DNA of 62,686 nucleotides, taken from positions 1 through 62,686 of the forward strand of contig JACRNX010000030.1 in NCBI GenBank assembly GCA_016214755.1, given 5' to 3'. This stretch comes from Candidatus Falkowbacteria bacterium (GTDB lineage Bacteria; Patescibacteriota; Patescibacteriia; UBA11705; JABHMO01). The notes below the pieces were generated by a model, which was given only the letters and a program-made list of their open reading frames with translations, did no database searches and was not told the origin of the DNA. Shown piece by piece: positions 3,165 through 58,778 of this stretch. Made by a program: the position numbers and the translations under genes. Numbering within the stretch: position 1 is the stretch's first letter; every line of letters starts with the position of its first letter.

Positions 3165-3207
3165 CCGTAGGGACAGGGCATTGCCCTGTTCATTGGATTA
3201 ACAAAAA

Positions 3208-6293: not shown

Positions 6294-6334
6294 ATAAGAA
6301 AATAAGAAATTAAGAAAATAAGAAAACAAATGTT

Positions 6335-6484: not shown

Positions 6485-6487
6485 TTT

Positions 6488-6517
6488 AAAAGCCGGGAAA
6501 TGTTCCCAGCTTTTTTA
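6488..6517. terminator. Candidate bidirectional terminator between convergent genes
   Basis: Hairpin AGCCGGGA-aatg-TTCCCAGCT is flanked by a T-run on the plus strand (TTTTTTATT) and an A-run upstream. It lies between 5742..6293 (+) and 6578..7255 (-). Confidence 0.55.
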
Positions 6518-6577
6518 TTATGTCCGCCTAAAAAGCGTTACGCGTTACTCGTTGCGCGTTCCTAAGCATTGGTTTAT

Positions 6578-7255
6578 TTACGGATGTTCATTAATTCTTG
6601 TTTGGCGATAGATTCGCCGCGTGATGGACACCCAATTGTTACTATAGTCAGTTTTGATTTCCAAAACACCGTCATAATTGGCGCTGTATTCAGAACCGCT
6701 CTTTTCAGCTAACGCGAACGGCTCTTCGCCTGTTGCTCGGACGCGGAAGAAGATTGGTTTATCAATAAACCATCTCCAGCGCCAGCCCTTTTTTAGTTTA
6801 AAAACAGTGTATTCTATTCCTGGATTAATCCAGTTTTTGAAATCAGCGTCTTCTATAAATATATTGTCGTGGCCAACAGGATTTACAGTTACCGTGGTTG
6901 ATGGTTTCGCCGCGTCCGCGCGAATCAAATCGTCTAGTTGGCGATATAGCCAGATCGCGACGCCGATTAAGCCGCCGATTAGTAGAAGGGCGACGAGAAT
7001 GCCACTAATGGCGGTCGCCAGGGTCGCCTTACTCGTTGGAGTCGCGCTCGGTGTTGGCGCGGCCGGCGCGCTTGGAGTCGCCGGCGCGGCCGTTGTTTTT
7101 GCGGACTTTGAAAAAAGTGCTTTCGCGATGAGCCAGACGATGGCGCCGGCCGCGAGTGCAATGCCTATTTTCCAGATGTCTGAAATGTCTGTCGTTTGGT
7201 CGAGGCAGATTAGCGCGCTGGCCGCGGTGACAACAGCAAAGAAAAACTGTTTCAT
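6578..7255 (-). CDS. Hypothetical membrane protein, co-operonic with the SPFH gene
   Basis: 225 aa with N-terminal TM helices, an Ala/Pro/Thr linker, another TM helix and a beta-rich C-terminal domain. Its start overlaps the stop of the upstream SPFH gene by 4 nt. Confidence 0.65.
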   Translation of the reverse strand: MKQFFFAVVTAASALICLDQTTDISDIWKIGIALAAGAIVWLIAKALFSKSAKTTAAPATPSAPAAPTPSATPTSKATLATAISGILVALLLIGGLIGVAIWLYRQLDDLIRADAAKPSTTVTVNPVGHDNIFIEDADFKNWINPGIEYTVFKLKKGWRWRWFIDKPIFFRVRATGEEPFALAEKSGSEYSANYDGVLEIKTDYSNNWVSITRRIYRQTRINEHP

Positions 7256-15294: not shown

Positions 15295-15375
15295 AAAATA
15301 GAATCTAGAATCTAGAAAGTAGAAAATAGAATGTAGAATTTTGTTAGACAGGGTTTTAAAATCAGCTTAACGAAA

Positions 15376-23619: not shown

Positions 23620-23632
23620 ATATGACTTGCTC

Positions 23633-25867: not shown

Positions 25868-26245
25868 ATGGAAAACGAAAAGGAAAAATTTAAAACCGAA
25901 CTAAAGCGTCGAATTTATACATGGATTCTTCGCCTTATTAAATTTTTAGATAGTTCGCCAAAAGATACCATAACTTATCGGGTTGTCGATCAATTATTTA
26001 GAAGCGGCGGCAGTATTGGCGCGAATTATATTGAAGCTCAAGCATCAAGTTCCAAAAAGGATTTTGTTAATTTTCTACATCATTCTCTTAAGTCTGCAAA
26101 TGAATCAAAGTTTTGGTTGGCGATTCTTAGAGATACCAAACGCGGAGATGCGGAGAAAATTAATTTGCTTCTTGACGAACTTATTGAAATTGCCAATATT
26201 TTAGGCGCCAGTATCTTAACCGTTAAAGGCAAAAGAAAGTTTTAG
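25868..26245 (+). CDS. Four-helix-bundle protein (23S rRNA intervening-sequence protein / Avd-like family)
   Basis: ..RSGGSIGANYIEAQASSSKKDFVNFLHHSLKSANESKFWL.. matches the family signature (s-I-x-a-N-I-a-E...f..fl..a.gS..E). The size of 125 aa is typical. Confidence 0.85.
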   Translation: MENEKEKFKTELKRRIYTWILRLIKFLDSSPKDTITYRVVDQLFRSGGSIGANYIEAQASSSKKDFVNFLHHSLKSANESKFWLAILRDTKRGDAEKINLLLDELIEIANILGASILTVKGKRKF

Positions 26246-27619: not shown

Positions 27620-27742
27620 TCAGCGATGGAAGACTTTTTGCCTGTCATGCTTCGAGAGCCTCAGCATGACATCAACTTGTCACCTTGAGGCGAGTTTGAA
27701 CGTGAACTGTTTCAAATCGTTTCGCATAAACCTCTCGAATGG

Positions 27743-28650: not shown

Positions 28651-30756
28651 ATGCTTGTCAACAAGATCCTGAATCGAGTTCAGGATGACAAATTTGGTTC
28701 GCCGGAAGAAAATTTAGCCGCGGTGGCGAAACAGGCGGGCTTGGAGAAAGAAGATCCGCGGATTATCGTCGCTCGATTCATCAAATGGTTTCTCGGTATT
28801 ATCGGCGCCATCGCGTTTATCATCGTCCTTTATGGCGGCTACACCTACATGACATCAGCCGGCGATCCGGAGAAAGTAAGGAAAGCAGAGGCAATATTGA
28901 AAAACGGCGTCATCGGGCTGATTATTATTTTCGCCGCTTATTCAATTACGGTTTTTGTGTTTAACATGTTATCGGTGAAAGAACCGTCTGGGACAGGATT
29001 GACGACCGCCGGCAGTGGACAGCTCGCCGGCAGTCCGTATGGATTGTCGAAAGGCGCGTTCGGCACGGTGATTCAAAGCCAGTATCCCCTGCCGGAGCAA
29101 ACCGGCGTGCCGCGCAATACCATGATTTTGGTGACTTTCAAAGCGCCGTTTGCCATTGATTCGCTGATTGACGTCAGTAAAAATGGCGATTGTCCAAAAG
29201 ATGACAAAGGCGCGTTGATAAAAAATTGCGGGGCAATTAAAACGGCCGCGTTCCGCGTTTATCAATGCGCGGATATGTTAAAAGAAAAATATTCTGATGA
29301 TAAAAACGCGACTTGCTTTAATAAAGAAATTTTTGATTTGGCGGATGAGAGCAAATTGGTTTCCGGTTATGGAATCGTAACCGAGGATTCTAAGACGATA
29401 ATTTTTAACCCATACGGCGACTCAAAAGAACAGCATTTGGGCAATGAGTTTGAAGATGTGCCATATATCGTCTATTTGACCGGCAAGATAATGCGGCAGG
29501 ATAATCCGGCGAAGTCCATTTTCACGACACAATATCCTGACCATAAGTGGCGGTTCACTACCAGCACGATTTTGGATTTGACGCCGCCTAAAGTCAGTTC
29601 AGTGGTGCCGGCTAATGTCGTTTACCCGATTAAGTGTCCGGGTGTTGGTTGCGCGGACGTTGATTCCAGCGGCAAGGTCTATTTGAATCAAATGGTTTAC
29701 ATTCATTTTAATGAACCAGTGATTCCGCCGCTCACGCAGACGCAGGATTGCACGATCGCTGATGATGACAATGAGGCGCAACTTGTTAACAACAAAAAAA
29801 TAGGCAGTTGTTTGACGATGCATGTCCCAGGTAAATGGAAAGTGGGAATTAATGGCTATCAAACAATCCAGTTCATTCCCACTACGCCGTGCGAAGGCGT
29901 TGAGAAAAATTCTTGCGGTAATCCGGTCTATTGTCTGCCGGCGAATTCGCAATTAATTGGTAAGGCCTTGGCGGCGAAAATTGTCGGCGGCGTTAGCATG
30001 CCCGGGACCGGTATTATGGATATGGCCGCCAATTCTTTGGATGGCAATGGCAACGGCAAGTCCGATGGGCCCGGCCCAATAGACGCTGACCCGAATAATA
30101 AAGACGCGATGCTCGATAGTTATTTTTGGGATTTTATAACTGGCGACAAATTGGATTTGATTGCGCCATGGGTGACCAGTTTGGAACCGAACAATAATAC
30201 CGCAGGCATTACGGACGTGAATCTTCCGTTATCCGCGATGTTCAGCGAATCAGTGGACGCCTATTCTGTTGACACGGAAATAAAATTAACTGGCTATAAC
30301 TCTGATGGAAAACAATTTGACGGCTGGTTTGACCCGAATCTTGGGAAAGAGGTTATTACGGAAAAAGTCGGCGACAAGGAGGTCTCGTCTGAAAAAGTTT
30401 TAGACAACAAAGCGGTGATTAGCCACGGCCCGTTTGAAGAATATATCGAAGGCCCTTCTCCATTGTACACGCCGGTTATTGGTTCAGAAGTAAAAGACAC
30501 GCGCCAGAATTGTTTCAGCCCGACCAAAGACGGCGCGGCGAAGGCGGAAGAAACAACTATTTTAAATAGCGAATGCGGGGTAAAAGATGCGGCAGGGGAG
30601 GTAAAAATACCTGGCGTCTCTTGTTGTCCGCAAGACGGAACTTATAAATTAATAGGGGACACAGGCGAAGAATGCACAACGCCTTGCCCGACAGGTTACA
30701 ACAAAGTAATAAAAGATAAAAAAGAAGAATGTATAATGCCGAAGGTTGTTAAGTAG
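28651..30756 (+). CDS. 701-aa surface protein: N-terminal TrbC/VirB2-like two-helix domain plus Ig-like (SbsA/Big_5-like) ectodomain and a Cys-rich tail
   Basis: ..IVARFIKWFLGIIGAIAFIIVLYGGYTYMTSAGDPEKVRKAEAILKNGVIGLIIIFAAYSI.. followed by beta-rich repeats (TPPKVSSVVPAN.., LIAPWVTSLEPNN..). The first 14 codons are a REP palindrome, so the start is uncertain (in-frame GTG at 28723). Confidence 0.8.
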   Translation: MLVNKILNRVQDDKFGSPEENLAAVAKQAGLEKEDPRIIVARFIKWFLGIIGAIAFIIVLYGGYTYMTSAGDPEKVRKAEAILKNGVIGLIIIFAAYSITVFVFNMLSVKEPSGTGLTTAGSGQLAGSPYGLSKGAFGTVIQSQYPLPEQTGVPRNTMILVTFKAPFAIDSLIDVSKNGDCPKDDKGALIKNCGAIKTAAFRVYQCADMLKEKYSDDKNATCFNKEIFDLADESKLVSGYGIVTEDSKTIIFNPYGDSKEQHLGNEFEDVPYIVYLTGKIMRQDNPAKSIFTTQYPDHKWRFTTSTILDLTPPKVSSVVPANVVYPIKCPGVGCADVDSSGKVYLNQMVYIHFNEPVIPPLTQTQDCTIADDDNEAQLVNNKKIGSCLTMHVPGKWKVGINGYQTIQFIPTTPCEGVEKNSCGNPVYCLPANSQLIGKALAAKIVGGVSMPGTGIMDMAANSLDGNGNGKSDGPGPIDADPNNKDAMLDSYFWDFITGDKLDLIAPWVTSLEPNNNTAGITDVNLPLSAMFSESVDAYSVDTEIKLTGYNSDGKQFDGWFDPNLGKEVITEKVGDKEVSSEKVLDNKAVISHGPFEEYIEGPSPLYTPVIGSEVKDTRQNCFSPTKDGAAKAEETTILNSECGVKDAAGEVKIPGVSCCPQDGTYKLIGDTGEECTTPCPTGYNKVIKDKKEECIMPKVVK

Positions 30757-31018: not shown

Positions 31019-34000
31019 ATGTTTGCGCGATTGAAAAAAGATTCAAGATTCTTGATAGCCGTGGTTGGCGCGGTGATTATTTTCAGTTTGTTCGCGTTCA
31101 GCGCGCTGGACATTGTCCATGCGCAGGGAACGCCGGAAGAGGGGCTGGCGCTGACTGGCACGGCGGCTGGACTGCAAGCCGGACAAGACCTCCGCGTAAT
31201 CATCGGCAACATCATCAAAATTATTCTGGGATTTTTAGGCGTGCTCGCTTTATGCATTGTTCTTTACGCTGGTTTTTTGTACATGACTTCTGGCGGCGAT
31301 CAAGAGAAAGTGCAGAAAGCGCGGCGGTGGCTGGTGAACGGCGCGATCGGTTTGGTCATTATTTTTTCCGCTTACGCCATTACTTCGTTCATCATCAATA
31401 AACTGAAAACGGCGGTCAGCGGCGAGGAAGCGTCAATTGCCGGCGGCGGAGGAGAGGGTGGACTGGGCATCGGCGGCATCATGGTGTTCACCGCCGGGCC
31501 GATCACGCCCAACACGCCGGCGGCCATCAATTATCCGGTCAAAGTATTTTTTAACAAAGGAGTGGATTCGAAAACAATAAATAAAGATAATGTCCAAATA
31601 ATTAAAAAGGGCGCTAAGGGCAAAGTGGTAAAAACATTAGCGCCGATTGAGGTGATTGAAAAAGGCGGCCAGGGCGCGGACAGTTTAAGCAAGATTCTCG
31701 TTAGCGACGACCAGTTCACGGGCTGGGATGTCTGTTTAACCGATACTTCTTCCGAGAGCACCAAAAAAATATCCGAGGGATACACGCCGATGTCAATGAT
31801 TTTTGATATTAGTGAATTAAAAGGTAAGTTGCCGTCTTCAGCAACGTATAAATTTGAAAACAAAAATTCGCCGGGCGGAAGATTCACGATTAGCTGCGGT
31901 GACAAAAATAATCCGGCGAAAAAAATCATAAAAGAAAAATGGGCCACGTCAGATAAACCTTATACCCAAAAAGTGAAAAATTCTTTAGAACTGCCTAAGG
32001 AATGTTTCAACAATGTCGCTGACAATCTGTTGTATATTCAGTGGAAGAGAGCGGGCGGCGCTTGCATTAAATTTGATTACATGGCGCTGGAAATGGCGTA
32101 TGAAGATTACACTGGCGCCGAGTCCGCGGTCAGCGGCGGTTTTAACGTCAGCGGTTCAACCGTGAGATTCCTGCCAGCTGATGATTGCAAAGATCCTGCT
32201 TGCAAAGGACAAAAATGTTTTGAAAAAAATACTGATTACAAAGTAGTTTTAAAGCCAAATGTCATTAAATCAAACACTGGCATTGGTTTGTCTTGCGCCG
32301 TTGGTAGTGTCTGCCTGCATGAATTTTCGACTAACGATGTCTGCGACGTCACCGCGCCGGCTGTTTCTTTCATCGAGCCGTGGAATGGCGCGAAAGTCAG
32401 CCAGGACGCGGATGTTGATGTAACAGTGAAGGCGATTGATGACGGCGGAGTGGATTACATTGATTTTTTGGTGGACAGCGTGTTTCAGGATAAAGCGACG
32501 CCGGCCAGCGGTAAAAACGAGCAAGAATTTTACGGCTATTTTTCGTGGAATACCGAGGATATTGTTTTAGATCCAGTGACGAAAAAAGCGGTTAAAAAAT
32601 TAAAAGCAGAAGCCGAGGACTTGGACAACCATTTGGCGAGCAAGGAAATTGAGGTAACGGTTTTGCCGGCATATTGTTTTGACAAAGAGGGCGCGATTAT
32701 ATGTGATAAAGACGGCACGCATCCTGAATGCGGCAAGTGTGATGGATCTGATTGCGTGAAAGATGATGATTGCGCTGGCGTCTGCAATAAAAAGTGTGTT
32801 GACGCAGAAGCGAAGCAATGCAAAGTTAATGCTGATTGCGCGTCCGGCGTGGCGTGTAAAGGCACTTGCGAGACATTGCCGGTTATCACCAATGTCAGTC
32901 CAGATATAGCCGGCGCGGGAAATTATGTAACGATTTTTGGTAAAGGATTTTTGTCATATAAAGAAGGAGTAAGCCAAGCGTTTTTCACTGGCGCGGCCGG
33001 AGGATATTTGGAAGCAAAGATTGTTAATTGCGTGGCAGGCAAGCCGGCCTGGTCATATAATCAAATAATCGTAAAAGTGCCTGAACTGGCTGGCACTGGC
33101 CCAATTAAAATAATAAATTCAAGCGGAAAGGAAGATGATACACAGGACGAGGATGGCTGGCAGGGCGAGTTTGAGTTCGACGCGAAAATAAAATATCCGG
33201 GTTTGTGCGCGGTCCAATTACAGAGTTGTACGCCGTCAAATATTGTTTCATGCGACGAAGGCGCGGTCGGCGATTCAGTCAAAGCAATAGGAATAAATTT
33301 CGGGCATGAGATGGCTGATTATGACATGATTTATTTCGGCAGCGCGCCGTTCGGGCAAGGCGCGGGCTTTGATTGGAAGGATAAGGAAATAAAAGGAATC
33401 CAAATACCAATAGTTAATCCTGCTAGTTATGGTGTGACTGTGGCCAAAGAGGATTCGAAGGATATTAATAAAAAAATTTACAGCAATCCGGTTTATTTTC
33501 ATGTTATTCCAGCCGCCAATCTGCCGAAGATTGATAAAGTCAGTCCAATGCCCGCGCCGTTTGGCCAGATGGTAACGATTAGCGGGCAATATTTTGGAGC
33601 AAACGTCGGTCATGTTGAATTTAGGCGATACATTAACGGCCAGCCGTATGATTGGGTCGCGGGTTTGGCCTGCGCCAGTGGAAGCTGGTCAGACAGTGAA
33701 ATCATTATTAAAGTGCCGAAAGAAATCGCCAATACTATTGCCAAAATCGAAGGCGCGGACGCTTTTAGCAAGGATTATCAAATTATTGTTTATAACTCGA
33801 AAGGGTTGGCCAGCAAGCCGGTTGATTTTGAAATTAACAACAAGGCGCCGGGGCCGGGCTTGTGTTCGATCAGTCCAAACAATGGGCCAGTCGGGACGAA
33901 ATTTAATTTATCCGGTGAAAATTTTGGCGAGTCAAAAGATTATTACATAAAATTTCCTGCGCCTGACAAAAAAAATGTTAATGTCACTGCTTTCAAAACA

Positions 34001-37000
34001 TGGGGAGAAAAACTGATTGAAAACGCGGCCGTGCCGGCTGGCGCGATTTCCGGCGCTGTGTTTTTGAGTTCAAACGCCGCGGACGTGGATATTGACAGCA
34101 ATAGTTTGAACTTTAGCGTCGGCAGTTGCAAAAAGGACTCTTGCGACGAAGGATTGACTTGCTGTCCAACTGGTATTTGTCAGACAAAATGCGAAGCAGA
34201 AGTGGAATATTCGCCATCAGAATATATGTGGTTAGTCAGCACTGGTCCCTTACCGATTTTGCCGCAGGTGTTGGAGCGAAGTTGCATCAAAGGCGTGTAT
34301 TCGCAATCGCCATCGCCATTCAAATCAACGGAAGACGCGTGTCCCAATGGTTTGATCTCCGCCACTTTCAATACGGCGATGAAAAAAGATAGTTTGAATA
34401 ATAATATCGAAGTGCGGCGCTGTTTTCTCAAAGATGGTGGCAAATGCGATTTCAGTATTTGTAAGAAAGGAGAAAAATTGGGAGACATAATTTGCGCCGG
34501 CGGCGAGGTTAAATGTCTGAAAAACGGCACGTGCGTTGCCAAAAGCGTCAGTCAAATAACGGCCAATGATTTTAGCGAGTCAAATTTGTCTATTAGTTGC
34601 AAAACGCCGGCCGGCGCGGATTGTTCTGTCGGCGCGAAGGACTGCCAATGTGTCAAAGGTTCGCTAGTTTCGCAGTTCAATTTATTTGACGCGCTGTCAG
34701 AATTAGCGGCCGGAGAAGTTCCGTTGATAAAGTCGGAAGACGACAAAGGAAAAATTATTCCTTATCAACTATTCGAAAATACTTGGTATCAGGTAATTAT
34801 CAAAGGCGGAACCATGAATGACGAGAATCAGTTCGAGGGCGGAGTCGTCTCGTCGGACGGAAAATCAATGGCTAGCGATTATGCCTGGACGTTCAAAACG
34901 AAAAATGAAAAATGCGTTCCTGATAATTTACTGTTGAAGCCGCTTATCGGTTTAATCAGCGATTTATACGGCATGCAAAAGTATATTGTTTCAGGACAAT
35001 ATCAATGTCAGGAAATCGCGCTTAACAATGAAAAATGGGAGTGGGGAGCGCAGGAGAGTTATAAAGAGAAAATTAAATTCAGCGGATATGGATGCGTTAA
35101 TGGAATTGAAGGGCAAATTTGTCCAGCCAACACGAACGATAAACGGCCGGACATTGGGTTTTACGGGTTGTTTACTGAAAAAGCGTCCACATTAAATTTA
35201 GAAACGCCGCTTGGTGAACCAGCGATTATTTTTGCGGACGCGGTGCCGACAGTTGATTCATTCATGAAAACCGCTTTTGACAAAATGCATAAAGAAGGCG
35301 GACTGGAAGTTAAATTCGCGGCGCCAAAAGTGATTTCTTATTATCCAAATTGCCAATCAGCTTGCATTAACAGCGAGCTCGGCGCGCATTTCAGCGCTCA
35401 AATGGACGCGGCTAGTTTGACGCCAAATAGCGTTAAACTTTATTCCTGCGCCAGCGCTGATTGCATTAATTTGACGTCAGTAGCGTTAACGTCGGGAGAA
35501 ATTGATTATCAATGGACAGCGCCTGACGTGACAAATAAAAGTCAGATAAGCAATTTAAAAGTCAATCCGACAAATGATTTGTCATCCAATACTTTTTATC
35601 GAATGGTAATCACAAATGGCGTTCAAAGTTCAAGCTTGAAACCGCTGGCGGGCTTGAATTATACAATTGCGAACGCGCCCAAAAGCGATTGCGCTGATTG
35701 GAAAGATAATGACGCTGATAATGGCATTGATGTCAGCGGCGGTTATATATACAAAGGCAACGATAAAAAAATATTAGATTTCGTTTGCGGTTGCTATAAT
35801 ACATCTGCGACAGGTGAACCAGCGCAGAAATTCGTCTCGTATAATAAAGTTGACGCTAAAGTGGCTTGTCCGACGGGAGTAAGTTTTTCTTGTTTTAACA
35901 TCAAGGAATCAATCATTACCGACCCGGTGGATTTGAAAAAAATTGTCGAGGATTATAATTATTTCAGCCCAGACAGCCAGTGCGCGAGCGAAGCGGATTT
36001 TGAAATCGGCAAGTCGGGGCAGTACGACGCGTTCAGTTGGGTGTTCAAAACCAAAGCGTCTTCGGAAAAATGCGAGATTGACAAAGTCGATGTCGTGCCA
36101 GTTAGTTACACGACCGAAAAGCAAGGCGAAAAGATTGAATATTGGTCGAATCCATATTCAGCGCCTGATGAATGTTCGGATAAAGGACAGCTTTTAGACC
36201 CGTTTGATTATGCGTGGAAGTGGGATAGCACAGCCAAAGTCATTGTTAACAATATTGCGATCCCTGCAATAGCTGAAATTACTAACACGAAAATAATGGA
36301 CGTACCTGAATATTGCACAGAGAATTGTTTGGCAAAAGGCGGCACGCCCGCTGGTTCTGTTTGTGGCGACGGCGCAGTCGGCTCTGGCGAAGAGTGCGAT
36401 GATAAAAATATCGTGAACGGAGATGGCTGTTCGGATAAATGTCTATTAGAACCGTTTAAAAATTGCACTGCCGATCAATTAAAAAATAAAGCAACGGGTT
36501 GTTGCGGCAACGGCACGCCAAATGAAGCGATTACAAATATTTACGGAAAAACATATAACGAAGAATGCGACGCGGGTTGCGAATACAAAGACGGGAGCGG
36601 TAAGGCCTGCGCGCCGTCCGCGGACAAACCAGAATGTGTCTGCGTATCCAAAGAATCATATTGTTCAAATGGCTGCTTAAATATTGGCACGGCGGCTGGT
36701 TTTGTCTGCGGTAACAGTAAAGTCGAAGCCGGCGAAGATAAAGATGATGGAAATAATAAAGATGGCGACGGCGTGAGTTCGATTTGTTTGAATGAAGGCG
36801 CGAAGTATAAAACAGGAGAGAAAGCGGCGTTATGCGGTGACGGTAAAATTGATTACGGCGAAGAATGCGAGGCGATTGCGAAGACAGCAGGCGGTTCAAT
36901 ATCATTAGATAATAATCCATATTGCAATGAAAAATGCTTATGGCAGGGATTTCCTGCTTGCGGAAAATGCGAAAAGAAGGTCGTTGATCCAGCGACAGGT

Positions 37001-39928
37001 AAGGAAACAGTTACAGCATGTTTACCGACAGATCCAGCTTGCGGCTGTTATAAATGTTGCGGCAACGCGCAGTTGGAGGATTATGATAATACGGATAAAG
37101 ATGACAATATAAATACGGATTTTGATGAAGAATGCGAAGCGACAGCGTTGTCTTGCGTGAAAAAGACAAAGACAGCGGACGGGAAAGAGAAGATCGAGTC
37201 GTGTGATTATTTGAAGGAGACGAATTGCGTCTGCGAGTTAAAATTTCCTGAATGGTGCAGTCCAAAATGCTTGAATCTGGGCTCGTCGTATAAATATGAT
37301 TCGTATTGCGGTGATGGATATGTTGGCAATGAAAAGCTTGTTAGTGAAAAGCCCGGCACTAAATACCTTTCCCTTGGCGAGGACGAACAATGCGAAGATG
37401 CCGGCTCAATGAGCGGCGCGCCATATCAAGTGGCGATAATAAAAGAAATAATGGATTTTTTCGCGGTGGATTCTGCGAACAAACCGATATTTTCATTCAA
37501 CGCCGCAACAAAATTTGTCGAAGGCGCGACGAAAATTATTGCGACAGCGACAGTGGATAAAGACGGAAAAAGTGTCGGGAAAACAGGAGAAGCTGATTTA
37601 AAATTCCGCACGAACGACCCGGACGTGCTCGCGAAATTTTGCTCGACTGAATTATGGCTTTCCGCAGGCAGTTCGCCGACAGAGAATCAGCAGAATGTCT
37701 GCCGCAACGCGCTGTTGTCATTTAATTTTGACAAACAATTAGACACGGCAAGCGCCAGCGTCGTGCTGTACAAAGTCGTTGGTAGTAATTCTGAACCGGT
37801 TGAATCGTCTTTCGCGGCCACGAACGTCGGCGGCAAGACGCATATCATTGTTACGCCCAAGTCGCTTTTGGATGCAACGAAAGATTATAAAGTTAAAATG
37901 TTCAATATAAAAAATGTCTGCGGATTTTATTTCTCGCCGTGGACGTTAAATTTCAAGACAGGAAGCGCTGTCTGCAAGCTCGATAAAATTAAAATCGAAC
38001 CAGCGGAAGAATTTGCGTTCGCGCCGAATCAAATTCATCTATTCCAAGCGTTGGCGATGAGCGGCGAGGAGGCGATAAACGAGGCAGTAGGTCTTTATGA
38101 GTGGACTTGGACATGGACGGCGGACGACACGACGATTGTCAGCGCTCCAGTTGCTTGCGCTTTTCCTCAAAATAGTAATGTGTGTGCATCGGGAACAGGG
38201 GTTGATAGTCCGACTGTCAATGTGACAAACCAAGCAAAGAACGGAACGGCGACGATTTTCGCTGAAACAAAAATCACGAAAGATGTTAATGTTGATGCGA
38301 CGGATGAAAATGCGAAAAGCACGGTAGGAGAAACAACTTCCGGCAGCGCCAAACTACAAGTTCTGATTTGTGAGAATTTATGGCAGCCGACAACATTGCC
38401 GGCGAATTGGGATACTTGGAAAATTACCAGTACAAATTTATCTGAGCCGGTTTCAACGCATGTTTACGAGAAAAATTACAACATCGGCTTGTTGTACTGC
38501 CGCGATTTCGGCCAGCCAAATAATAAAACCGACGACTTGCCGAAGGTGAAAATTATAACTATGGGCGGCTGTCAAAACGGAATTGATGACGATATGGACG
38601 GAAAAATAGACGCACTCGAGACGAAAATATTTACGGACAAGGTTAATATATCAATTCAGTCAAAAGATGTAGGGATGTCTTTCAGTAGTGAACCAGTAAA
38701 TTTTGTAAAGCAGGGAAAAACAACAGCAATAACTTTAAAGTTCACGTTGACTAAGCCAGTTCAGAATTTATTTACATTGAATATAGAATTTTTTAATAAT
38801 GACACCTCGATAGGTAGCAAGAATTTAATTGGAATTAACAATAATATTCCGAAATATTTTCCTTTTGACCAATTTCTTAATTATGGAAATGTGGCATTTA
38901 AAGTTATAGTGAAGGAAGAGAATAGCATTATTACTACTACAATGGGATTTTTAGAAAATAATGATTCTGATCCTAAGTGCAAGACCAAGGACGACAGTGA
39001 AATCGCAGTAGGAAATTTATTGACAGAATATTTTTTGACGCGCGACGAGACAGAAACAGATAATTCAACTGATGTTATCGCTCTCCGCATCTACAAAAAT
39101 CCAGAATTTTTGGCGCCGTCGGTTTGGTACCAAAAATACGCGCCGAATCCAGCGGACACGACCAGCAGTTTGTCTCTCGACTGCCAAAAAGACGAGTTTG
39201 GAGAATTTTGCTATTCAGCGGCCGTGGACGGGCCGTCGGTTTATGTCGGCGCGAGCAATCTGGCGGGAGGTACTACTCCGGGAATTGATATTTATAACAA
39301 CATCCATATTTTAAGCCATTCGCAAAGCGCGAACGAGGCGACATTAAATATCTTTAATCAAATAGTGGCGTATTTGCAGTTCAATTTTAATCTTGGCGGT
39401 TTGTCGAAGGTCTCTTTAATTCGCGACACGCAGAGGATTCAAGATATGGTGTGGACGCGGCTTGTTATTGACCAATACAAACAAAAGCATAATGGCGAGG
39501 CGCCGCAACTTGAATCAGGCACTTATGAACGGGGATTGTCGTTTAGTGTTTGGCCATCTTGGCAGAACGAATTAGGCGGCGCGTTGAAGCAGACATTGCC
39601 GGTTGATCCGTTGAATCATTTCAAATGGGAAAAGCCGAGCTTTGTTGGCGCTGGAATCGCCTGCCTTGGTTCTGTTAAATGTCCGGACGCGGCTTTCCAG
39701 TGCGTTATTCCCAATAAATATTGCGTTAAATGTCCAACCGGATTTGACGCGCTGACCTGCTATGACAGCAACACGCAAAAGTTTTTCAATTATTATTCAA
39801 ATCCAGACGAGCATCCGGTTTACTCTTATCAAGCTGACCCAGAAAATGCAAAAAACAAATCAGCGTATAAATTGGACTTTATGCTGGAGATAACGAGTAA
39901 GATATATAAAATAACGACGGGGTTTTAG
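31019..39928 (+). CDS. Giant (2969 aa) cell-surface protein: signal peptide, TrbC/VirB2-like two-helix domain, Ig-like and IPT/TIG domains, CGDG..EECD Cys-rich repeats
   Basis: Signal peptide ..ALDIVHA-QG. Pilin-like segment IIKIILGFLGVLALCIVLYAGFLYMTSGGDQEKVQKARRWLVNGAIGLVIIFSAYAI. IPT-like PVITNVSPDIAGAGNYVTIFGKGF, PKIDKVSPMPAPFGQMVTISGQYFG, PGLCSISPNNGPVGTKFNLSGENFG. Cys-rich repeat CGDGAVGSGEECDDKNIVNGDGCSDKC plus five related repeats. Confidence 0.9.
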   Translation: MFARLKKDSRFLIAVVGAVIIFSLFAFSALDIVHAQGTPEEGLALTGTAAGLQAGQDLRVIIGNIIKIILGFLGVLALCIVLYAGFLYMTSGGDQEKVQKARRWLVNGAIGLVIIFSAYAITSFIINKLKTAVSGEEASIAGGGGEGGLGIGGIMVFTAGPITPNTPAAINYPVKVFFNKGVDSKTINKDNVQIIKKGAKGKVVKTLAPIEVIEKGGQGADSLSKILVSDDQFTGWDVCLTDTSSESTKKISEGYTPMSMIFDISELKGKLPSSATYKFENKNSPGGRFTISCGDKNNPAKKIIKEKWATSDKPYTQKVKNSLELPKECFNNVADNLLYIQWKRAGGACIKFDYMALEMAYEDYTGAESAVSGGFNVSGSTVRFLPADDCKDPACKGQKCFEKNTDYKVVLKPNVIKSNTGIGLSCAVGSVCLHEFSTNDVCDVTAPAVSFIEPWNGAKVSQDADVDVTVKAIDDGGVDYIDFLVDSVFQDKATPASGKNEQEFYGYFSWNTEDIVLDPVTKKAVKKLKAEAEDLDNHLASKEIEVTVLPAYCFDKEGAIICDKDGTHPECGKCDGSDCVKDDDCAGVCNKKCVDAEAKQCKVNADCASGVACKGTCETLPVITNVSPDIAGAGNYVTIFGKGFLSYKEGVSQAFFTGAAGGYLEAKIVNCVAGKPAWSYNQIIVKVPELAGTGPIKIINSSGKEDDTQDEDGWQGEFEFDAKIKYPGLCAVQLQSCTPSNIVSCDEGAVGDSVKAIGINFGHEMADYDMIYFGSAPFGQGAGFDWKDKEIKGIQIPIVNPASYGVTVAKEDSKDINKKIYSNPVYFHVIPAANLPKIDKVSPMPAPFGQMVTISGQYFGANVGHVEFRRYINGQPYDWVAGLACASGSWSDSEIIIKVPKEIANTIAKIEGADAFSKDYQIIVYNSKGLASKPVDFEINNKAPGPGLCSISPNNGPVGTKFNLSGENFGESKDYYIKFPAPDKKNVNVTAFKTWGEKLIENAAVPAGAISGAVFLSSNAADVDIDSNSLNFSVGSCKKDSCDEGLTCCPTGICQTKCEAEVEYSPSEYMWLVSTGPLPILPQVLERSCIKGVYSQSPSPFKSTEDACPNGLISATFNTAMKKDSLNNNIEVRRCFLKDGGKCDFSICKKGEKLGDIICAGGEVKCLKNGTCVAKSVSQITANDFSESNLSISCKTPAGADCSVGAKDCQCVKGSLVSQFNLFDALSELAAGEVPLIKSEDDKGKIIPYQLFENTWYQVIIKGGTMNDENQFEGGVVSSDGKSMASDYAWTFKTKNEKCVPDNLLLKPLIGLISDLYGMQKYIVSGQYQCQEIALNNEKWEWGAQESYKEKIKFSGYGCVNGIEGQICPANTNDKRPDIGFYGLFTEKASTLNLETPLGEPAIIFADAVPTVDSFMKTAFDKMHKEGGLEVKFAAPKVISYYPNCQSACINSELGAHFSAQMDAASLTPNSVKLYSCASADCINLTSVALTSGEIDYQWTAPDVTNKSQISNLKVNPTNDLSSNTFYRMVITNGVQSSSLKPLAGLNYTIANAPKSDCADWKDNDADNGIDVSGGYIYKGNDKKILDFVCGCYNTSATGEPAQKFVSYNKVDAKVACPTGVSFSCFNIKESIITDPVDLKKIVEDYNYFSPDSQCASEADFEIGKSGQYDAFSWVFKTKASSEKCEIDKVDVVPVSYTTEKQGEKIEYWSNPYSAPDECSDKGQLLDPFDYAWKWDSTAKVIVNNIAIPAIAEITNTKIMDVPEYCTENCLAKGGTPAGSVCGDGAVGSGEECDDKNIVNGDGCSDKCLLEPFKNCTADQLKNKATGCCGNGTPNEAITNIYGKTYNEECDAGCEYKDGSGKACAPSADKPECVCVSKESYCSNGCLNIGTAAGFVCGNSKVEAGEDKDDGNNKDGDGVSSICLNEGAKYKTGEKAALCGDGKIDYGEECEAIAKTAGGSISLDNNPYCNEKCLWQGFPACGKCEKKVVDPATGKETVTACLPTDPACGCYKCCGNAQLEDYDNTDKDDNINTDFDEECEATALSCVKKTKTADGKEKIESCDYLKETNCVCELKFPEWCSPKCLNLGSSYKYDSYCGDGYVGNEKLVSEKPGTKYLSLGEDEQCEDAGSMSGAPYQVAIIKEIMDFFAVDSANKPIFSFNAATKFVEGATKIIATATVDKDGKSVGKTGEADLKFRTNDPDVLAKFCSTELWLSAGSSPTENQQNVCRNALLSFNFDKQLDTASASVVLYKVVGSNSEPVESSFAATNVGGKTHIIVTPKSLLDATKDYKVKMFNIKNVCGFYFSPWTLNFKTGSAVCKLDKIKIEPAEEFAFAPNQIHLFQALAMSGEEAINEAVGLYEWTWTWTADDTTIVSAPVACAFPQNSNVCASGTGVDSPTVNVTNQAKNGTATIFAETKITKDVNVDATDENAKSTVGETTSGSAKLQVLICENLWQPTTLPANWDTWKITSTNLSEPVSTHVYEKNYNIGLLYCRDFGQPNNKTDDLPKVKIITMGGCQNGIDDDMDGKIDALETKIFTDKVNISIQSKDVGMSFSSEPVNFVKQGKTTAITLKFTLTKPVQNLFTLNIEFFNNDTSIGSKNLIGINNNIPKYFPFDQFLNYGNVAFKVIVKEENSIITTTMGFLENNDSDPKCKTKDDSEIAVGNLLTEYFLTRDETETDNSTDVIALRIYKNPEFLAPSVWYQKYAPNPADTTSSLSLDCQKDEFGEFCYSAAVDGPSVYVGASNLAGGTTPGIDIYNNIHILSHSQSANEATLNIFNQIVAYLQFNFNLGGLSKVSLIRDTQRIQDMVWTRLVIDQYKQKHNGEAPQLESGTYERGLSFSVWPSWQNELGGALKQTLPVDPLNHFKWEKPSFVGAGIACLGSVKCPDAAFQCVIPNKYCVKCPTGFDALTCYDSNTQKFFNYYSNPDEHPVYSYQADPENAKNKSAYKLDFMLEITSKIYKITTGF

Positions 39929-42069: not shown

Positions 42070-42098
42070 AATTAGGGGGTAGGTGGTAAGGGGGTAGT

Positions 42099-42209
42099 GA
42101 GTAGTTTTATAGAGACGACAAAAATTGGAATTGAGAAGTGAGCTGTCTTGGAAGGGTTCCTTTTTACGTCAAAAAATCTCTACAACCTACTCACTACAAC
42201 CTACAACCT
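42099..42209 (+). repeat. 111-nt repeat, copy 1 (candidate structured RNA or MITE)
   Basis: Identical to 50571..50681 except for 2 substitutions (hand alignment). Rod-like self-complementarity: GACG..AAAAA / TTTTT..CGTC and GGAAY / GTTCC. Confidence 0.8.
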
Positions 42210-42278: not shown

Positions 42279-42701
42279 ATGATAATTGAAATTAATAATC
42301 AAACCGATTATTCTATCCCGAAAGAAAAGATTGACGCTTTGCTCCGTCTGGCCGGCCGGGTTTTGAAAATCAGAAAAAAACAGCGGATATCGGTTGCTTT
42401 TGTCCCGTCCGCGCGGATCAGGGAAATGAACCGGATATATCGCAAAAAAAATAAAATAACTGATGTCTTGTCATTCGCGCTTTCTCCGTCTGAATCGGAA
42501 ATAATTATTTGTCCGTCAGCGGCGAAAGCGCAAGCGAAAAAACAGCCCGGCGGATTCCAACAAGAAATTTTAGCTTTAGTTCTGCATGGATTTTTGCATA
42601 TTAATGGATTCGAGCATGAAAAATCAAAGATCGCCGCGAGGAAGATGGAGAAAATTGAAGAAGATATTATTACAAAATCCGAAATCCTAAATCCTAAATA
42701 A
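42279..42701 (+). CDS. ybeY: rRNA maturation RNase YbeY
   Basis: HGFLHINGFEHE metal-binding motif; 140 aa. Confidence 0.88.
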   Translation: MIIEINNQTDYSIPKEKIDALLRLAGRVLKIRKKQRISVAFVPSARIREMNRIYRKKNKITDVLSFALSPSESEIIICPSAAKAQAKKQPGGFQQEILALVLHGFLHINGFEHEKSKIAARKMEKIEEDIITKSEILNPK

Positions 42702-42860
42702 ATTCCATCCTTCGAGGCTCGTCCCGCCTTCAGCGAGACTCGCACCTCAGGATGACAAACTACAATTCCCTAAGCCACTCTATAAATTGTTTGGAGTTTG
42801 AACATTGGAAAATTGGAGTTTGTTTAGAATTTCGATATTCGAATTTTGAATTTAAACTTT

Positions 42861-43214: not shown

Positions 43215-43487
43215 AATGTCATGCTTCGAGAGCCTCAGTATGACAAAGGTCGTTCGCTATGTCATCCTGAGGTTCTCGAAGGATCGAAGGGCTGAACTAA
43301 AAATGTGTGCAAAAAATTGAAAAATCCTGTAAATTTGGGATTTTTTAAGCACCATTTGGCGTTTTGTTAAAAAGGTATTATAATAGAATAGTAAATCGTA
43401 ATCTGTAATTGGTAATCCATAATTTATGAGACAGATTTAAAATTACGAATTACGAATTACGAATCCCTGTTTTCTCTTAATTATCTT

Positions 43488-51234: not shown

Positions 51235-51376
51235 ATACGGATTACGGATTATGTACGGATATACGGATTATTTGAGACAGGAAAATTAAATTTTATTTGT
51301 AGCATTTGTAGTGGTGAGCTTGCCCTGAGCTTGCCTGCGGTGAGCTTGTCGAACCCGTCGAAGGGTAATTTGTAGC
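51235..51376 (-). repeat. Inverted copy of the 6335..6484 composite repeat
   Basis: Its reverse complement aligns with 6335..6484 over about 140 nt with few differences. Confidence 0.8.
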
Positions 51377-53806: not shown

Positions 53807-53867
53807 TGAGTAGTGGGTAGTGTTTTGATATAACTACCACCTACCACCTACCACCTACCACCTAATT

Positions 53868-54981: not shown

Positions 54982-55332
54982 ATGGGTACAAAATCATTTA
55001 AAGAATTAATTGTTTGGCAAAAGTCGCGAGATTTAGCAATTGCTGTTTATCAATTTACAGAAAAATTTCCACGTTCAGAATTATATGGATTGTCAAGTCA
55101 GATGAGACGAGCCGCTGTTTCAATTTCCTCGAATATCGCGGAAAGTTATCGCCGTTTTCATTTTAAAGAGAAAAGACATTTATTGACAATTGCTTTTGGT
55201 TCTGGTTCGGAGTTAGAAAGTCAAATTGAGATTTCGAAAATATTGTTCTCAAATATAGATTACGATCGCGCGGAGCGAACTTTAGACGAGGTAATGAAAC
55301 TCCTCAATAATTTTTTGAATAATAATAAATAA
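54982..55332 (+). CDS. Four-helix-bundle protein (23S rRNA intervening-sequence protein / Avd-like family)
   Basis: ..LIVWQKSRDLAIAVYQFTEKFP..QMRRAAVSISSNIAESYRRF..GSGSELESQIEISK.. is a canonical signature of the family. Confidence 0.88.
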   Translation: MGTKSFKELIVWQKSRDLAIAVYQFTEKFPRSELYGLSSQMRRAAVSISSNIAESYRRFHFKEKRHLLTIAFGSGSELESQIEISKILFSNIDYDRAERTLDEVMKLLNNFLNNNK

Positions 55333-55380
55333 AATTCTACATTCTACATTCTACATTCTATTTTCTATTTTCTAAATTCT

Positions 55381-56322
55381 ATGTTTATTAAACCAAAAGT
55401 ATTAGTCACCGGCGGCGCCGGGTTCATCGGCTCGCACCAAGTAGACGCGCTCATTGACGCCGATTATCGAGTGGCGGTGGTTGACAATTTGTCAACCGGC
55501 GATCGAAATAATTTGAATCCGCAGGCAGAATTTTACGAATTAGACATCCGTGAAAGCAAGCTGGCGGAAGTTTTTGAAAAAGAAAAGCCGGACTTTGTTT
55601 TTCATTTCGCAGGGCAAATCAGCGTCAATCAGTCGGTGGAAGACCCGGTTTACGACGCGGACGTCAACATCATCGGTTCGTTGAATCTGCTGGAGCAATG
55701 CGTGAAATATAAAGTCAAAAAAATTATTTTTTCTTCCACCGGCGGCGCGCTTTACGGTGAAGCGGACGTCGTGCCGACGGCAGAGGACTATCCCTGCCAG
55801 CCGATTTCACCGTATGGCATCGCTAAATTGTCGGTGGAAAACTATTTGCGATTTTATTTTGAACAATTCGGTTTGGCCTGCGGCATAATGCGCTACGCCA
55901 ATGTCTATGGCCCGCGCCAGAACTCAAAGGGCGAAGCCGGCGTGATCGCGATTTTCACGGAAAAAATGCTCAATCGTTTAACGCCAATCATCCACGGCGA
56001 CGGCCATCAAACGCGCGATTATGTTTTTGTCGAAGACGTCGTCAGCGCCAACATGGCGATGCTGGAAAGCGAGGCCGTGGATTTTTACAATGTTGGCACT
56101 AGCCGGCAGACGACGGTGAACGAGGTTTTTAATTTCATCAAAAAGGAATTAGCGTCGGACGCCGAGCCGCGCTATGACCCTAACGCGTTTGCCGGCCAGG
56201 CGGTCAGCTGTTTGAGTTTTGAAAAAATTCAGCGCGCGCTCGGCTGGCGGCCGCTCTTTGATGTTGAGGAAGGAATCAAGAAGACGGTGGAGTGGTTTAG
56301 GGATAAAGAAAATAGAAAATAG
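55381..56322 (+). CDS. NAD-dependent sugar epimerase/dehydratase (UDP-glucose 4-epimerase-like)
   Basis: VLVTGGAGFIGSH Rossmann motif and the catalytic SPYGIAKL (YxxxK). Confidence 0.88.
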   Translation: MFIKPKVLVTGGAGFIGSHQVDALIDADYRVAVVDNLSTGDRNNLNPQAEFYELDIRESKLAEVFEKEKPDFVFHFAGQISVNQSVEDPVYDADVNIIGSLNLLEQCVKYKVKKIIFSSTGGALYGEADVVPTAEDYPCQPISPYGIAKLSVENYLRFYFEQFGLACGIMRYANVYGPRQNSKGEAGVIAIFTEKMLNRLTPIIHGDGHQTRDYVFVEDVVSANMAMLESEAVDFYNVGTSRQTTVNEVFNFIKKELASDAEPRYDPNAFAGQAVSCLSFEKIQRALGWRPLFDVEEGIKKTVEWFRDKENRK

Positions 56323-56478
56323 AAAGTAGAAAGTAGAAAGGATAGGGTGAAAATTAATGGAGACATGGAATTACAGATAGGATGTGGCGTCAGATTTCGT
56401 GCGTTTAGTTTTCCCCTTTAGACTTGCCCTGAGTAAAATCGAAGGGATAAGGGGGAAAAAGGGGGTTATTCAAGGGTT

Positions 56479-57435
56479 ATGAAACGTGGAAGCAATAATT
56501 TTTTGCCAAAGGATAATTTTCGGCCACGCAAACGGTTGGGGCAGAATTTTTTGATTGATAAAAATATTTTGCGAAAAATTATGGCCGCCGCTCGTTTATC
56601 AGCCGCGGACAACGTGCTTGAAGTCGGCCCGGGAAAAGGCATTCTGACCGAAGAGCTCGTCAAAAAAGCGAAGCGGGTCGTGGCGGTGGAAAAAGATAAA
56701 AGATTGGCAGAAGAAATTCTAAACAAATCACAAATTCCAAATTACGAATTACGTCCTTCGAGGCTCGCCCCGCCAGAAGCGGGGCTCGCACCTCAGGATG
56801 ACAAGTGCGTTTTCTCTGTCACCCTGAGCCCATTCGACGGAGTTTATCCTGAGCGAAGTCGAAGGGCTCAGGGTAAACTCTGTCGAAGGGACGATTTACG
56901 AATTATCTGCGCCGACATCTTGAAGATTACGGCGGACGATTTGCGGGAATGGTTTAACGCTGAACCGTATAAAATCGTCGCCAATTTGCCGTACAATATC
57001 ACCAGCCGATTTCTACGGCAGTTTTTGGAAAGCGACTATCAGCCGAAAGAAATGATTTTAATGGTCCAAAAAGAAGTGGCTGAGCGCGTCGTCCAAAAGC
57101 CCGGGCAGATGAGCTTGTTGTCCGTGTCAGTGCAATTTTTTTGCGAACCGGAAATTTTGTTTTTTGTCTCAAAAAATTGTTTTCAGCCGGCGCCGAAAGT
57201 TGACAGCGCCGTCATTCGATTGAACAATATCCGGCGCGATAAGTTCGCGATTCCAGCGGATATTTTTTTCGCGGTGGTGAAAAAAGGGTTCAGCGCCAAG
57301 CGCAAGCAGTTGAAAAACAATCTTGGAGTGACCGCGACGGCATTAAGTCAGCTGGGGCTTAAGCCAACAGTCAGGCCGCAGGAGCTTTCAATGGGCGATT
57401 GGATTAAATTGGCGGAAAGAGGTGGTAGATTGTAG
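56479..57435 (+). CDS. rsmA: 16S rRNA (adenine1518/1519-N6)-dimethyltransferase RsmA/KsgA (with an in-frame repeat insertion)
   Basis: KRLGQNFL, VLEVGPGKGILTE, VAVEKD, ANLPYNITS. An extra block of about 60 aa lies between the SAM-binding strand and the ..IICADIL.. strand. Confidence 0.88.
   Translation: MKRGSNNFLPKDNFRPRKRLGQNFLIDKNILRKIMAAARLSAADNVLEVGPGKGILTEELVKKAKRVVAVEKDKRLAEEILNKSQIPNYELRPSRLAPPEAGLAPQDDKCVFSVTLSPFDGVYPERSRRAQGKLCRRDDLRIICADILKITADDLREWFNAEPYKIVANLPYNITSRFLRQFLESDYQPKEMILMVQKEVAERVVQKPGQMSLLSVSVQFFCEPEILFFVSKNCFQPAPKVDSAVIRLNNIRRDKFAIPADIFFAVVKKGFSAKRKQLKNNLGVTATALSQLGLKPTVRPQELSMGDWIKLAERGGRL
56728..56906 (+). repeat. About 180-nt composite REP-like insertion, in frame, inside rsmA
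   Basis: Contains a family-A unit (56755-56804, also at 42709-42758 and 58712-58761 rc) and a GTCACCCTGAGCC..GGCTCAGGGTAAAC palindrome. It is bounded by TTACGAATTA words on both sides. Confidence 0.75.
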
Positions 57436-57672
57436 GTGGTAGTGAGTAGGTGGTAGTCGCCCACCAATTTGTCAAAAGATCCTGAATCGAGTTCAGGATG
57501 ACAATTAGACATGCCCAAGATTTATTCACATCCCTTTGGTTATTTGCATTAAAAATGTTATAATGTATTCAGTAAAAAAACACGCTAAAATAAGCAAGCG
57601 ATGTCTGCATATTTTTCAAGACAATAAGTTTTGCGTTTTCACTTTCTACAACCTACTCACTACAACCTAAAT

Positions 57673-58572
57673 ATGCGCGAAGAAGATAAGAAGGAATTTC
57701 CAGCGGATGAACCTGAAATCCAGCCAGATGTTAATGTTGAAAAAGGATTCGGAGCCACGCGGTTCGCGCAAAGCAATCCAGTGGATGATTTTAATGTTTA
57801 TCAAAGAGAGAAAAGGAAACAAATAATCGCTTTAACCGGAGTGGCGGTGATTGGCATCGGAATAGTAATTATTGGATTTTGGCAATTAAAAAATAATTTG
57901 ACGCTGCCTTGGCCAGCCGCTCCCAAAGACAGCGGGACAGCTGTTTCCGCGAGCCAGGTAATCGAAAAGATGGATATCAGCGATGAAGATCCGGCGGTTT
58001 TGAAACAAAAGGATTCAGATGGAGATAAAATCAGCGACTTTGACGAATATTACATTTATGGCACCAGCGCTTATCTCGCTGATTCTGATTCAGATGGCGT
58101 CTCGGATTTTGACGAAATCCAAAATAGCGAAGACCCGAATTGCGAAAAAGGCAAGCAATGTTTTCGAACTGGAGAGTTCGTGGAAGCCGGCTTGAGCGAG
58201 GGGACGAAAACCGAAAGCAGTCCAAAAAGCAGTTTATTGAATATTGACGCTGACACTTTGCGGAAATTGTTAGCGCAGTCAGGCAAAATCAGCGAAGACC
58301 AGTTGAAAATAATCAGCGACGCGGATTTGATAGAGATGTACAAGCAAATGCTGGCGGAAAATCCGGATTTAGTGAAAAAGTTTGAGGCGCAGGCGAACGA
58401 GGATAAAAGTTCGGCGCCAACCGAGGGGAGCGTGACGATCGTGGATATAAAGAAAATGCTGTTGAGCCAAGGGATAAGCGAATCAGAATTAAACGCTTTC
58501 GGCGACGCGGAGTTGACGAAAATGTACCAAGCGGCTTTTGAAAAAGTTAAGACAGAAGAACAAAACAAATAA
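57673..58572 (+). CDS. TM protein with TSP3-like Ca-binding repeats
   Basis: Start MREEDKKEF. TM helix IIALTGVAVIGIGIVIIGFW, then DSDGDKISDFDE..DSDSDGVSDFDE. The upstream codons of the track ORF are word repeats. Confidence 0.8.
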   Translation: MREEDKKEFPADEPEIQPDVNVEKGFGATRFAQSNPVDDFNVYQREKRKQIIALTGVAVIGIGIVIIGFWQLKNNLTLPWPAAPKDSGTAVSASQVIEKMDISDEDPAVLKQKDSDGDKISDFDEYYIYGTSAYLADSDSDGVSDFDEIQNSEDPNCEKGKQCFRTGEFVEAGLSEGTKTESSPKSSLLNIDADTLRKLLAQSGKISEDQLKIISDADLIEMYKQMLAENPDLVKKFEAQANEDKSSAPTEGSVTIVDIKKMLLSQGISESELNAFGDAELTKMYQAAFEKVKTEEQNK

Positions 58573-58778
58573 TGTTTTGTCATGCTTCGAGAGCCTCAGC
58601 ATGACAAGCATCCTCGGCGTGACAGAATCTTCGCGTGAAGAAAGTCGCCCCTCTGTGTCACCCTGAGGCTCTCGAAGGGTGACATTGGGTGACATTTGGA
58701 AAACGTCCTCATGTCATCCTGAGGTGCGAGTCCCGACGAAAGTCAGAGCGAGCCTCGAAGGATGACGAAGAGAATATT
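58573..58778. repeat. Tandem array of three or more REP-like palindromes
   Basis: GTCATGCTTCGAGAGCCTCAGCATGAC (58579-58605, also at 27644-27670 and 43219-43245); GTCACCCTGAGGCTCTCGAAGGGTGAC; and the family-A unit at 58712-58761 in reverse orientation. Confidence 0.8.

Follow-up and report, generated by a model that had tools for sequence, protein, structure and literature searches.

How does the gene for a conserved methyltransferase come to carry a block of palindromic DNA inside its reading frame, and what becomes of its protein? The rsmA (ksgA) gene of this Candidatus Falkowbacteria contig raises this question. It is addressed here from the gene outwards, within the whole 62.7-kb stretch of DNA that was analysed (the window) and in related genomes and metagenomes.

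The rsmA gene and the boundaries of its insert

The gene, the block within it and the flanks of the block are as follows.

56479–57435, plus strand: rsmA/ksgA open reading frame, 318 amino acids with the insert included, identified by Pfam, by matches to KsgA structures in the PDB and by Foldseek.
56742–56753, plus strand: left flank, a heptamer tract AATTACGAATTACG that includes the left TTACGAATTA word as well as the TTACG adjoining the insert.
56754–56900, plus strand: inserted block of 147 nt (49 codons), the edge of which can slide by 5 nt along the TTACG repeat.
56896–56905, plus strand: right TTACGAATTA word, the native L-R-I-I codons of strand 3.

The rsmA product matches the Pfam family RrnaAD (E = 1.6e-53; 181.9 bits, cut-off 24), with the match split in two stretches, and KsgA proteins in the PDB with E-values down to 3e-39. 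A model predicted by AlphaFold2 with a 120-sequence alignment has the KsgA fold, reaching target-normalised TM-scores of 0.73–0.88 against KsgA structures in Foldseek. The structure alignments break after query residue 81 and restart at 138, positions whose counterparts in B. subtilis are 86 and 94. As the initial annotation had stated, the RsmA motifs are intact on both sides of the insert: the GxGxG SAM-binding motif, NLPY and the acidic residues that follow strands 2 and 3 are all present, every residue invariant in the 120 homologues is kept (E48, G50, G52, G54, D73, N169, P171 and Y172), and so are the near-invariant E71 and D146. Its description of the gene as essential was too strong, since KsgA is near-universal yet dispensable in E. 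coli. A second intact rsmA, which would have marked this copy as a likely pseudogene, is absent from the 62.7-kb window, and the reading frame is intact over 318 codons. The nearest homologues belong to Parcubacteria, Kuenenbacteria, Falkowbacteria and Moranbacteria, the best of them (261 amino acids) sharing 58% identity by BLASTP and 66–67% over aligned columns; this places the contig in CPR/Patescibacteria. Sister strains lacking the insert had been proposed as a check; the databases searched yielded no empty-site sister genome, the nearest RsmA among 5.8 billion proteins being the one at 58% identity.

The segment from D73 to D146 spans 22 amino acids in 74 of the 120 homologues and 24 in a further 17, against 72 in the window RsmA. 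The loop thus has one of these two lengths in 91 of the 120 CPR homologues and other lengths in the remaining 29, with an overall range of 19 to 96 amino acids, which supports the earlier view of an insertion rather than an ancestral domain. The extra codons, about 49, lie between helix B and strand 3 of the methyltransferase fold. An earlier estimate of some 60 codons had counted native loop residues (KSQIPNYEL and LR) with the 147-nt block. In-silico removal of 56754–56900 restores an open 269-amino-acid RsmA with a 23-residue loop that reads ...AEEILNKSQIPNYELRIICADILK..., and the GC content of the insert is 0.58 versus 0.46 for the rest of rsmA.

At the DNA level, the predicted empty junction joins ...AAATTACGAATTACG directly to AATTATCTGC..., and the sequence left after removal, AAATTACGAATTACGAATTA, is an (ATTACGA)n heptamer tract. 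The same heptamer stands in tandem in a spacer (43441–43464), and perfect period-7 tracts, 16 in the contig, are common between genes. The pentamer TTACG borders the 147-nt block on both sides (56749–56753 and 56896–56900), and the TTACGAATTA word is found at 56742–56751 and again at 56896–56905, where it aligns with CTGCGAATAATC (LRII) of the nearest homologue, P0002. These flanking words had been read as a target duplication. Both copies are real, but they do not form a clean duplication: they lie 154 nt apart (147 + 7), a distance not divisible by three, so that excision between them would break the frame, which is kept only by the 147-nt register. A simple 10-nt target duplication was therefore rejected. 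Since the insert lies in a heptamer tract, direct repeats would border any insertion there and speak neither for nor against a target duplication. The same applies to the fixed duplication typical of miniature transposable elements with inverted repeats (MITEs): a 5-nt TTACG does border the insert, but the target itself consists of tandem heptamers.

Only one of the six frames of the 147-nt block is free of stop codons, namely the rsmA frame, and the peptide that it encodes holds 9 K+R, 7 D+E and 6 P in 49 residues. In the AlphaFold2 model, the RsmA core has pLDDT values above 90, 10-residue block means fall to 42–54 over residues 91–140, and values stay below 50 at residues 107–136. The extra segment sits between a helix (residues 74–83) and a strand (140–144). 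The comparison with orthologues and KsgA structures suggested at the outset thus places the insert in a length-variable loop, which, from the topology of the Rossmann-like fold, is expected on the side of the sheet opposite the SAM pocket.

Several other genes of the region were recorded. Small genes for '23S rRNA intervening sequence proteins' lie between housekeeping genes near rsmA (54982–55332 and 25868–26245), and in a syntenic relative (L002) rsmA is flanked instead by small GIY-YIG genes (3164–3430 and 6272–6583). The window also encodes a 956-amino-acid protein with Dickkopf-like cysteine-rich repeats and a C-terminal type IV secretion pilin domain (8596–11466), and an open reading frame of 2969 amino acids (31019–39928).

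Composition of the insert and its repeat family in the window

The insert combines a 51-nt palindrome and a 76-nt nested palindrome, joined by a short linker.

56754–56804, minus strand: module 1, a long-form repeat, TGTCATCCTGAGG-TGCGAG-CCCCGCTTCTGGCGGGG-CGAGCC-TCGAAGGA, in which CCCCGCTTCTGGCGGGG is the apical hairpin segment.
56805–56816, plus strand: linker of 12 nt, AGTGCGTTTTCT, read from the sequence.
56817–56892, plus strand: module 2, a nested palindrome with an outer CCTGAGC...GTCGAAGGG, 25-nt inverted arms and an inner CCTGAGCGAAGTCGAAGG unit.

Module 1 shares 88% identity over 51 nt with 42708–42758 and also matches 58712–58762 in reverse, which bears out the proposal that the block is encoded by two REP-like palindromes of a kind also found between genes. 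Its outer stem shows erosion in the 3′ part, with pairing at 4 of 7 positions by hand count, so it falls under the 5/7 cut-off of the census described below. Two inverted repeats lie in module 2, I4 and the 25-nt I1 (88% complementary), and the stretch 56831–56890 has the lowest folding energy of any 60-nt window in the contig (−38 kcal/mol). A consensus scan of the insert found no intrinsic terminator. At gathering thresholds, Rfam gave no match at the insert, across the window or in 15 other repeat-bearing loci, and a permissive Rfam scan of 56300–57700 returned chance-level matches only. Pfam reports only methyltransferase families for rsmA, with no intein or intron signature. A reading of CUGAGG...CUCGAAGG as a hammerhead or kink-turn, considered by eye, was discarded because A9 and the third stem are absent and the arrangement of bulge and GA pairs does not fit.

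Related repeats were located with the query CTGAG...CGAAG, with a minimum of 5 complementary bases among the 7 that flank it and with shuffled sequence as a control; a listing of GC peaks had proved too noisy for this purpose. The family and a simpler relative, the TGTC REP, are represented in the window by the following elements.

42703–42757, minus strand: long-form, intergenic, directly 3′ of the ybeY stop codon (similarity and census).
58712–58767, plus strand: long-form, intergenic (similarity and census).
27643–27671, minus strand: short-form, TGTCATGCTGAGGCTCTCGAAGCATGACA (census).
43217–43245, 43260–43288, 58578–58606 and 58656–58684: further short-form copies (census).
51318–51370, plus strand: variant CCTGAGC...GTCGAAGGG within a dispersed repeat of about 200 nt, with a partner at 6341–6393 on the minus strand.
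57476–57501, minus strand: simple TGTC REP, TGTC-ATCCTGAA-CTCGA-TTCAGGAT-C, 41 nt past the rsmA stop codon, with a twin at 28665–28690.

Nine canonical CCTGAG...TCGAAGG copies were counted, all intergenic, versus 0.42 in shuffled sequence. Seven of them open with TGTCA and close with its complement (TGTCA...TGACA), and AT follows the TGTC in six of these seven. The short form can be written TGTCA(Y/T)(C/G)CTGAGGCTCTCGAAG(G/C)(R/A)TGACA, and its stem carries compensatory changes (CACCC/GGGTG versus CATGC/GCATG). The long form occurs three times, in rsmA and at 42703–42757 and 58712–58767, with identical arms of 19 and 14 nt and wholly different apical hairpins.

The window holds further repeats of interest. 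Its 16 perfect period-7 tracts comprise varied heptamers and lie mostly in or beside intergenic spacers (for example 15299–15317, 42682–42699, 43441–43464, 53834–53864, 55334–55360 and 56307–56325), and its GC-rich palindromes tend to adjoin or occupy such tracts. Two pairs of longer intergenic repeats are dispersed: 51227–51422 matches 6287–6491 (206 nt, 85% identity) and contains the CCTGAGC...GTCGAAGGG element, and 50546–50681 matches 42073–42209 (137 nt, 95% identity). At least eight spacers share a TAGAAAR-rich motif of about 34 nt, which is present in both orientations. The TGTC REP at 28651–28700 lies inside the first 14 codons of a called 701-amino-acid ORF (MLVNKILNRVQDDK...), the true start of which may lie downstream. 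Within the ORF at 226–1827 (533 amino acids, no Pfam match) lie three GC-rich hairpins of very high stability, whose sequences are of other types (831–890, 1291–1350 and 1360–1420); these may be in-frame palindromes, or the ORF may not be one real gene.

Related insertions and the distribution of the family

A second conserved gene of the window carries a copy in frame.

22474–22518, minus strand: in-frame family copy within der/engA (ORF 22162–23694, minus strand), encoding the peptide RHPERAPTSVGASRRVE.

The Der segment of about 27 amino acids that contains RHPERAPTSVGASRRVE is absent from B. subtilis EngA and has the second GTPase domain on one side and the KH domain on the other. The likeness to Rickettsia palindromic elements (RPEs) proposed for rsmA therefore gains a second case, in addition to an in-frame position in a tolerant loop.

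In other CPR genomes, the RsmA loop of several homologues is also occupied by palindromes, which are independent of those in the window gene. That of P0002 holds a simple TGTC REP of the type at 57476–57501, which differs from the palindromes of the window gene, and that of P0006, whose contig is syntenic with the window, is longer by 74 amino acids through several TGTCATT... units. Other GC-rich palindromes occupy the loops of P0004 and P0083. The latter forms a filled/empty pair with P0058, both from Moranbacteria: the two proteins are 86% identical with a single 10-residue gap, which corresponds in the DNA to a 30-nt GC-rich palindrome in a (CAATTTT)n tract, without duplication. The P0083 repeat differs from the window family but lies in the same loop and in the same sort of target. 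A second RsmA loop, near residue 205 and normally of 10 amino acids, contains inserts of 10–33 amino acids derived from GC-rich palindromes in P0009, P0012 and P0068.

The long form was sought beyond CPR with the pattern CCTGAGGTGCGAG-N8-30-GAGCCTCGAAGG in one genome per species, yielding at least 119 loci. The matches listed come mostly from Alphaproteobacteria, including Bradyrhizobium, Afipia and Caulobacter, with others from Actinobacteria (Gordonia, Janibacter and Aeromicrobium) and one Chloroflexia genome. Among them, 125 distinct copies carry 111 different apical segments, which still pair (a mean of 3.4 terminal pairs versus 0.6 in shuffles), and the first outer pair covaries, being T-A in 85 copies and C-G in 31. 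The alphaproteobacterial copies among the matches listed mostly start with CGTCAT. One alphaproteobacterial genome (L063, 6997–7641) has six near-identical long-form copies arrayed head to tail, one about every 122 nt, and in another locus (L086, about position 5776, minus strand) the apical hairpin is itself a small CCCTGAGCCCGTCGAAGGG unit, a nesting like that of module 2 in rsmA.

A metagenome scan for the short form (TGTCATCCTGA-N1-4-CTCGA-N0-3-AGGAT) matched at least 120 contigs. Identical 25-mers occur on contigs of 29% to 69% GC among the matches listed, where 119 of 135 copies are intergenic or at gene edges. Five in-frame cases confirmed by Pfam were found on low-GC contigs, in PriA (two copies), cobalamin adenosyltransferase, the delta′ subunit of Pol III, a YchF-like GTPase and an Fe/Mn superoxide dismutase (SOD).

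Less expected is that the sequence of these repeats is conserved between distant phyla and that the family is absent from Rfam. It is possible, if rather doubtful, that the CCTGAG...TCGAAGG elements are more than ordinary REPs, namely an as yet undescribed pan-bacterial structured DNA or RNA module held constant by conserved cellular or mobile machinery. Behind this reading stand the identical 25-mers at 29–69% GC, the invariant arms and internal loops around a covarying, hypervariable hairpin, the spread over Alphaproteobacteria, Actinobacteria, Chloroflexi and CPR, the lack of an Rfam family, and the in-frame coding copies.

Comparison with known elements and competing explanations

RPEs, first reported by Ogata (2000), have been reviewed since (PMC2229807; PMC10969869), and the RPE-bearing guanylate kinase (gmk) of Rickettsia is translated and active (PMC2229807; PMC10969869). 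Like the repeats in rsmA, they are palindromes that lie both between genes and in frame in conserved genes, where the fold tolerates them; the rsmA and der copies are likewise in frame, that of rsmA in a length-variable loop of low model confidence. RPEs measure 105–146 bp, and the rsmA insert of 147 nt is at the top of this range. Unlike RPE-1, which consists of a single long stem-loop and has a conserved peptide of its own, the rsmA insert combines two short, unrelated-looking REP units, and in place of one stem-loop of 105–146 bp whose terminal inverted repeats measure about 12 bp it has two palindromes and a 12-nt linker. The hosts also differ: RPEs belong to Rickettsia, whereas the insert is found in a free-standing CPR lineage. 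The likeness is one of behaviour, and the only link in sequence is through the equation of R. conorii RPE-6 and RPE-4 with the CGTC-1 and CGTC-4 families in one paper (PMC3733652).

That paper describes CGTC-tagged REPs with the tag CGTC, TGTC or CCTC, a stem of 8–9 bp that opens with AT and a loop of 4–5 nt; they are found in five phyla, have no dedicated transposase, form a CGTC/TGTC-tagged superfamily to which Neisseria dRS3 also belongs, and have in-frame copies in many genes, among them that for the R. conorii dimethyladenosine transferase, which has a CGTC-1 dimer at its N-terminus (Di Nocera, 2013; PMC3733652). Set against this account, the simple copies at 57476–57501 and 28665–28690 agree in having TGTC followed by AT, an 8-bp stem and a 5-nt loop, dimensions shared by the P0002 copy but not by the CCTGAG...TCGAAGG forms of the rsmA insert. 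The canonical copies also have the tag and the AT opening in the proportions given above. In both groups most copies are intergenic near gene ends, with a minority in frame; dimers or clusters are frequent, many phyla are involved, and no transposase is linked, which for the window holds within the copies and ORFs scanned (no transposase among about half of the ORFs of at least 100 amino acids). The stem of the REPs described there is simple, whereas that of the CCTGAG...TCGAAGG forms has two parts and an internal loop that is conserved, and the long form also carries an apical hairpin that is hypervariable. The described tag is unpaired and at one end; most window copies are instead mirrored (TGTCA...TGACA), the tag pairing with the far end. 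The peptides VILR.., ..PQDD and PERSRR of the window family are not among the intragenic examples that the paper lists. With in-frame REPs and RPEs on record (PMC2229807; PMC10969869; PMC3733652), the rsmA case is a further example of a known phenomenon, and the initial annotation overstated its novelty for a very different lineage, since in-frame REPs of the related CGTC/TGTC class are already known in several phyla (PMC3733652).

MITEs such as Correia/NEMIS, ERIC and YPAL are also small, non-autonomous and hairpin-forming, and are sometimes fused in frame to ORFs (PMC2229807). They span 100–200 bp, with defined terminal inverted repeats, TA duplications and sometimes a known parent IS, whereas the window units are 25–55 nt long, and neither a parent element nor a clear duplication turned up for them. 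The mobile GC clusters of yeast mitochondria are GC-rich palindromes that enter AT-rich DNA and occur in frame in VAR1; they belong to organelle genomes and are unrelated in sequence to the window repeats. Searches of published text with the repeat sequence strings returned unrelated primers only, and literature searches for palindromic elements or MITEs in CPR/Patescibacteria found nothing relevant.

The data show the in-frame insertion in RsmA, its identity as two REP-type palindromes, its open frame, the intact motifs and the tolerance of the loop; very probably, the block is translated and disordered. Two small non-autonomous palindromic repeats entered the AT-rich heptamer tract in which the connection from helix B to strand 3 is encoded; they are of REP type, mostly TGTCA-tagged and with a CCTGAG...TCGAAGG core, and would have arrived through a mobilising activity acting in trans. 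The copy would owe its survival to its length, which is a multiple of three bases, to the use of its sole stop-free frame and to the freedom of the loop to vary in length. Its product would most likely be a disordered protrusion of about 49 residues from the surface of a methyltransferase that is otherwise normal, and its effect roughly neutral. Every long-form copy, in the window and among the other matches listed, differs in its apical hairpin; such differences inside a single genome fit poorly with a master element that was copied recently and speak against it.

Four other explanations deserve consideration. The gene could be a decaying pseudogene, or the insert could have inactivated it, in which case RsmA function would be lost or come from another source: the window shows only 62.7 kb of the genome, E. 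coli can dispense with ksgA, and the eroded outer stem of module 1 (4 of 7 pairs) suggests age. The intact 318-codon frame, the retention of all residues invariant in 120 homologues, the coincidence of the one open frame of six with the frame in use and the lack of a second rsmA in the window nevertheless make this unlikely. Co-option of the insert, for instance as an arginine-rich arm contacting rRNA or a partner protein, might be suggested by its charged and proline-containing composition and by the fact that RsmA and Der both act on ribosomal subunits. It is a little harder still to accept, as the peptide is conserved in none of the 120 homologues examined, model confidence is low for the insert, and the same repeats occur in enzymes unrelated to RsmA and Der, SOD and cobalamin adenosyltransferase among them.

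Removal or skipping of the insert before the protein matures, as an intron, an intein or a bypassed segment, is brought to mind by its very stable hairpins (−38 kcal/mol) and by the bypassing of GC-rich palindromes in some yeast mitochondria, but such removal would leave nothing to keep the insert stop-free and a multiple of three in length, and it is both; 49 amino acids are, moreover, too few for an intein, and neither Pfam nor Rfam reports an intein or intron signature. This possibility is therefore very remote. The least credible reading is that of an old, lineage-specific RsmA loop or domain that owes nothing to repeat DNA. Many CPR RsmA proteins are indeed expanded here (the 29 of 120 with neither of the two common lengths), but the extra peptides are unrelated between homologues, the insert DNA is made of repeats also found between genes, and the nearest homologue, P0002, has a different palindrome at the site.

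The insertion of this palindromic block extends to CPR/Patescibacteria the in-frame behaviour of Rickettsia RPEs and intragenic REPs. CPR genomes are small, and one might expect a cost where insertions enter their conserved genes. In RsmA, the loop that joins helix B to strand 3 stands out as a place where insertions land repeatedly. For annotation, conserved proteins become longer through such inserts and their domain matches are split, and the gene need not be broken. The wider lead is the conservation of the repeat sequence itself across phyla.
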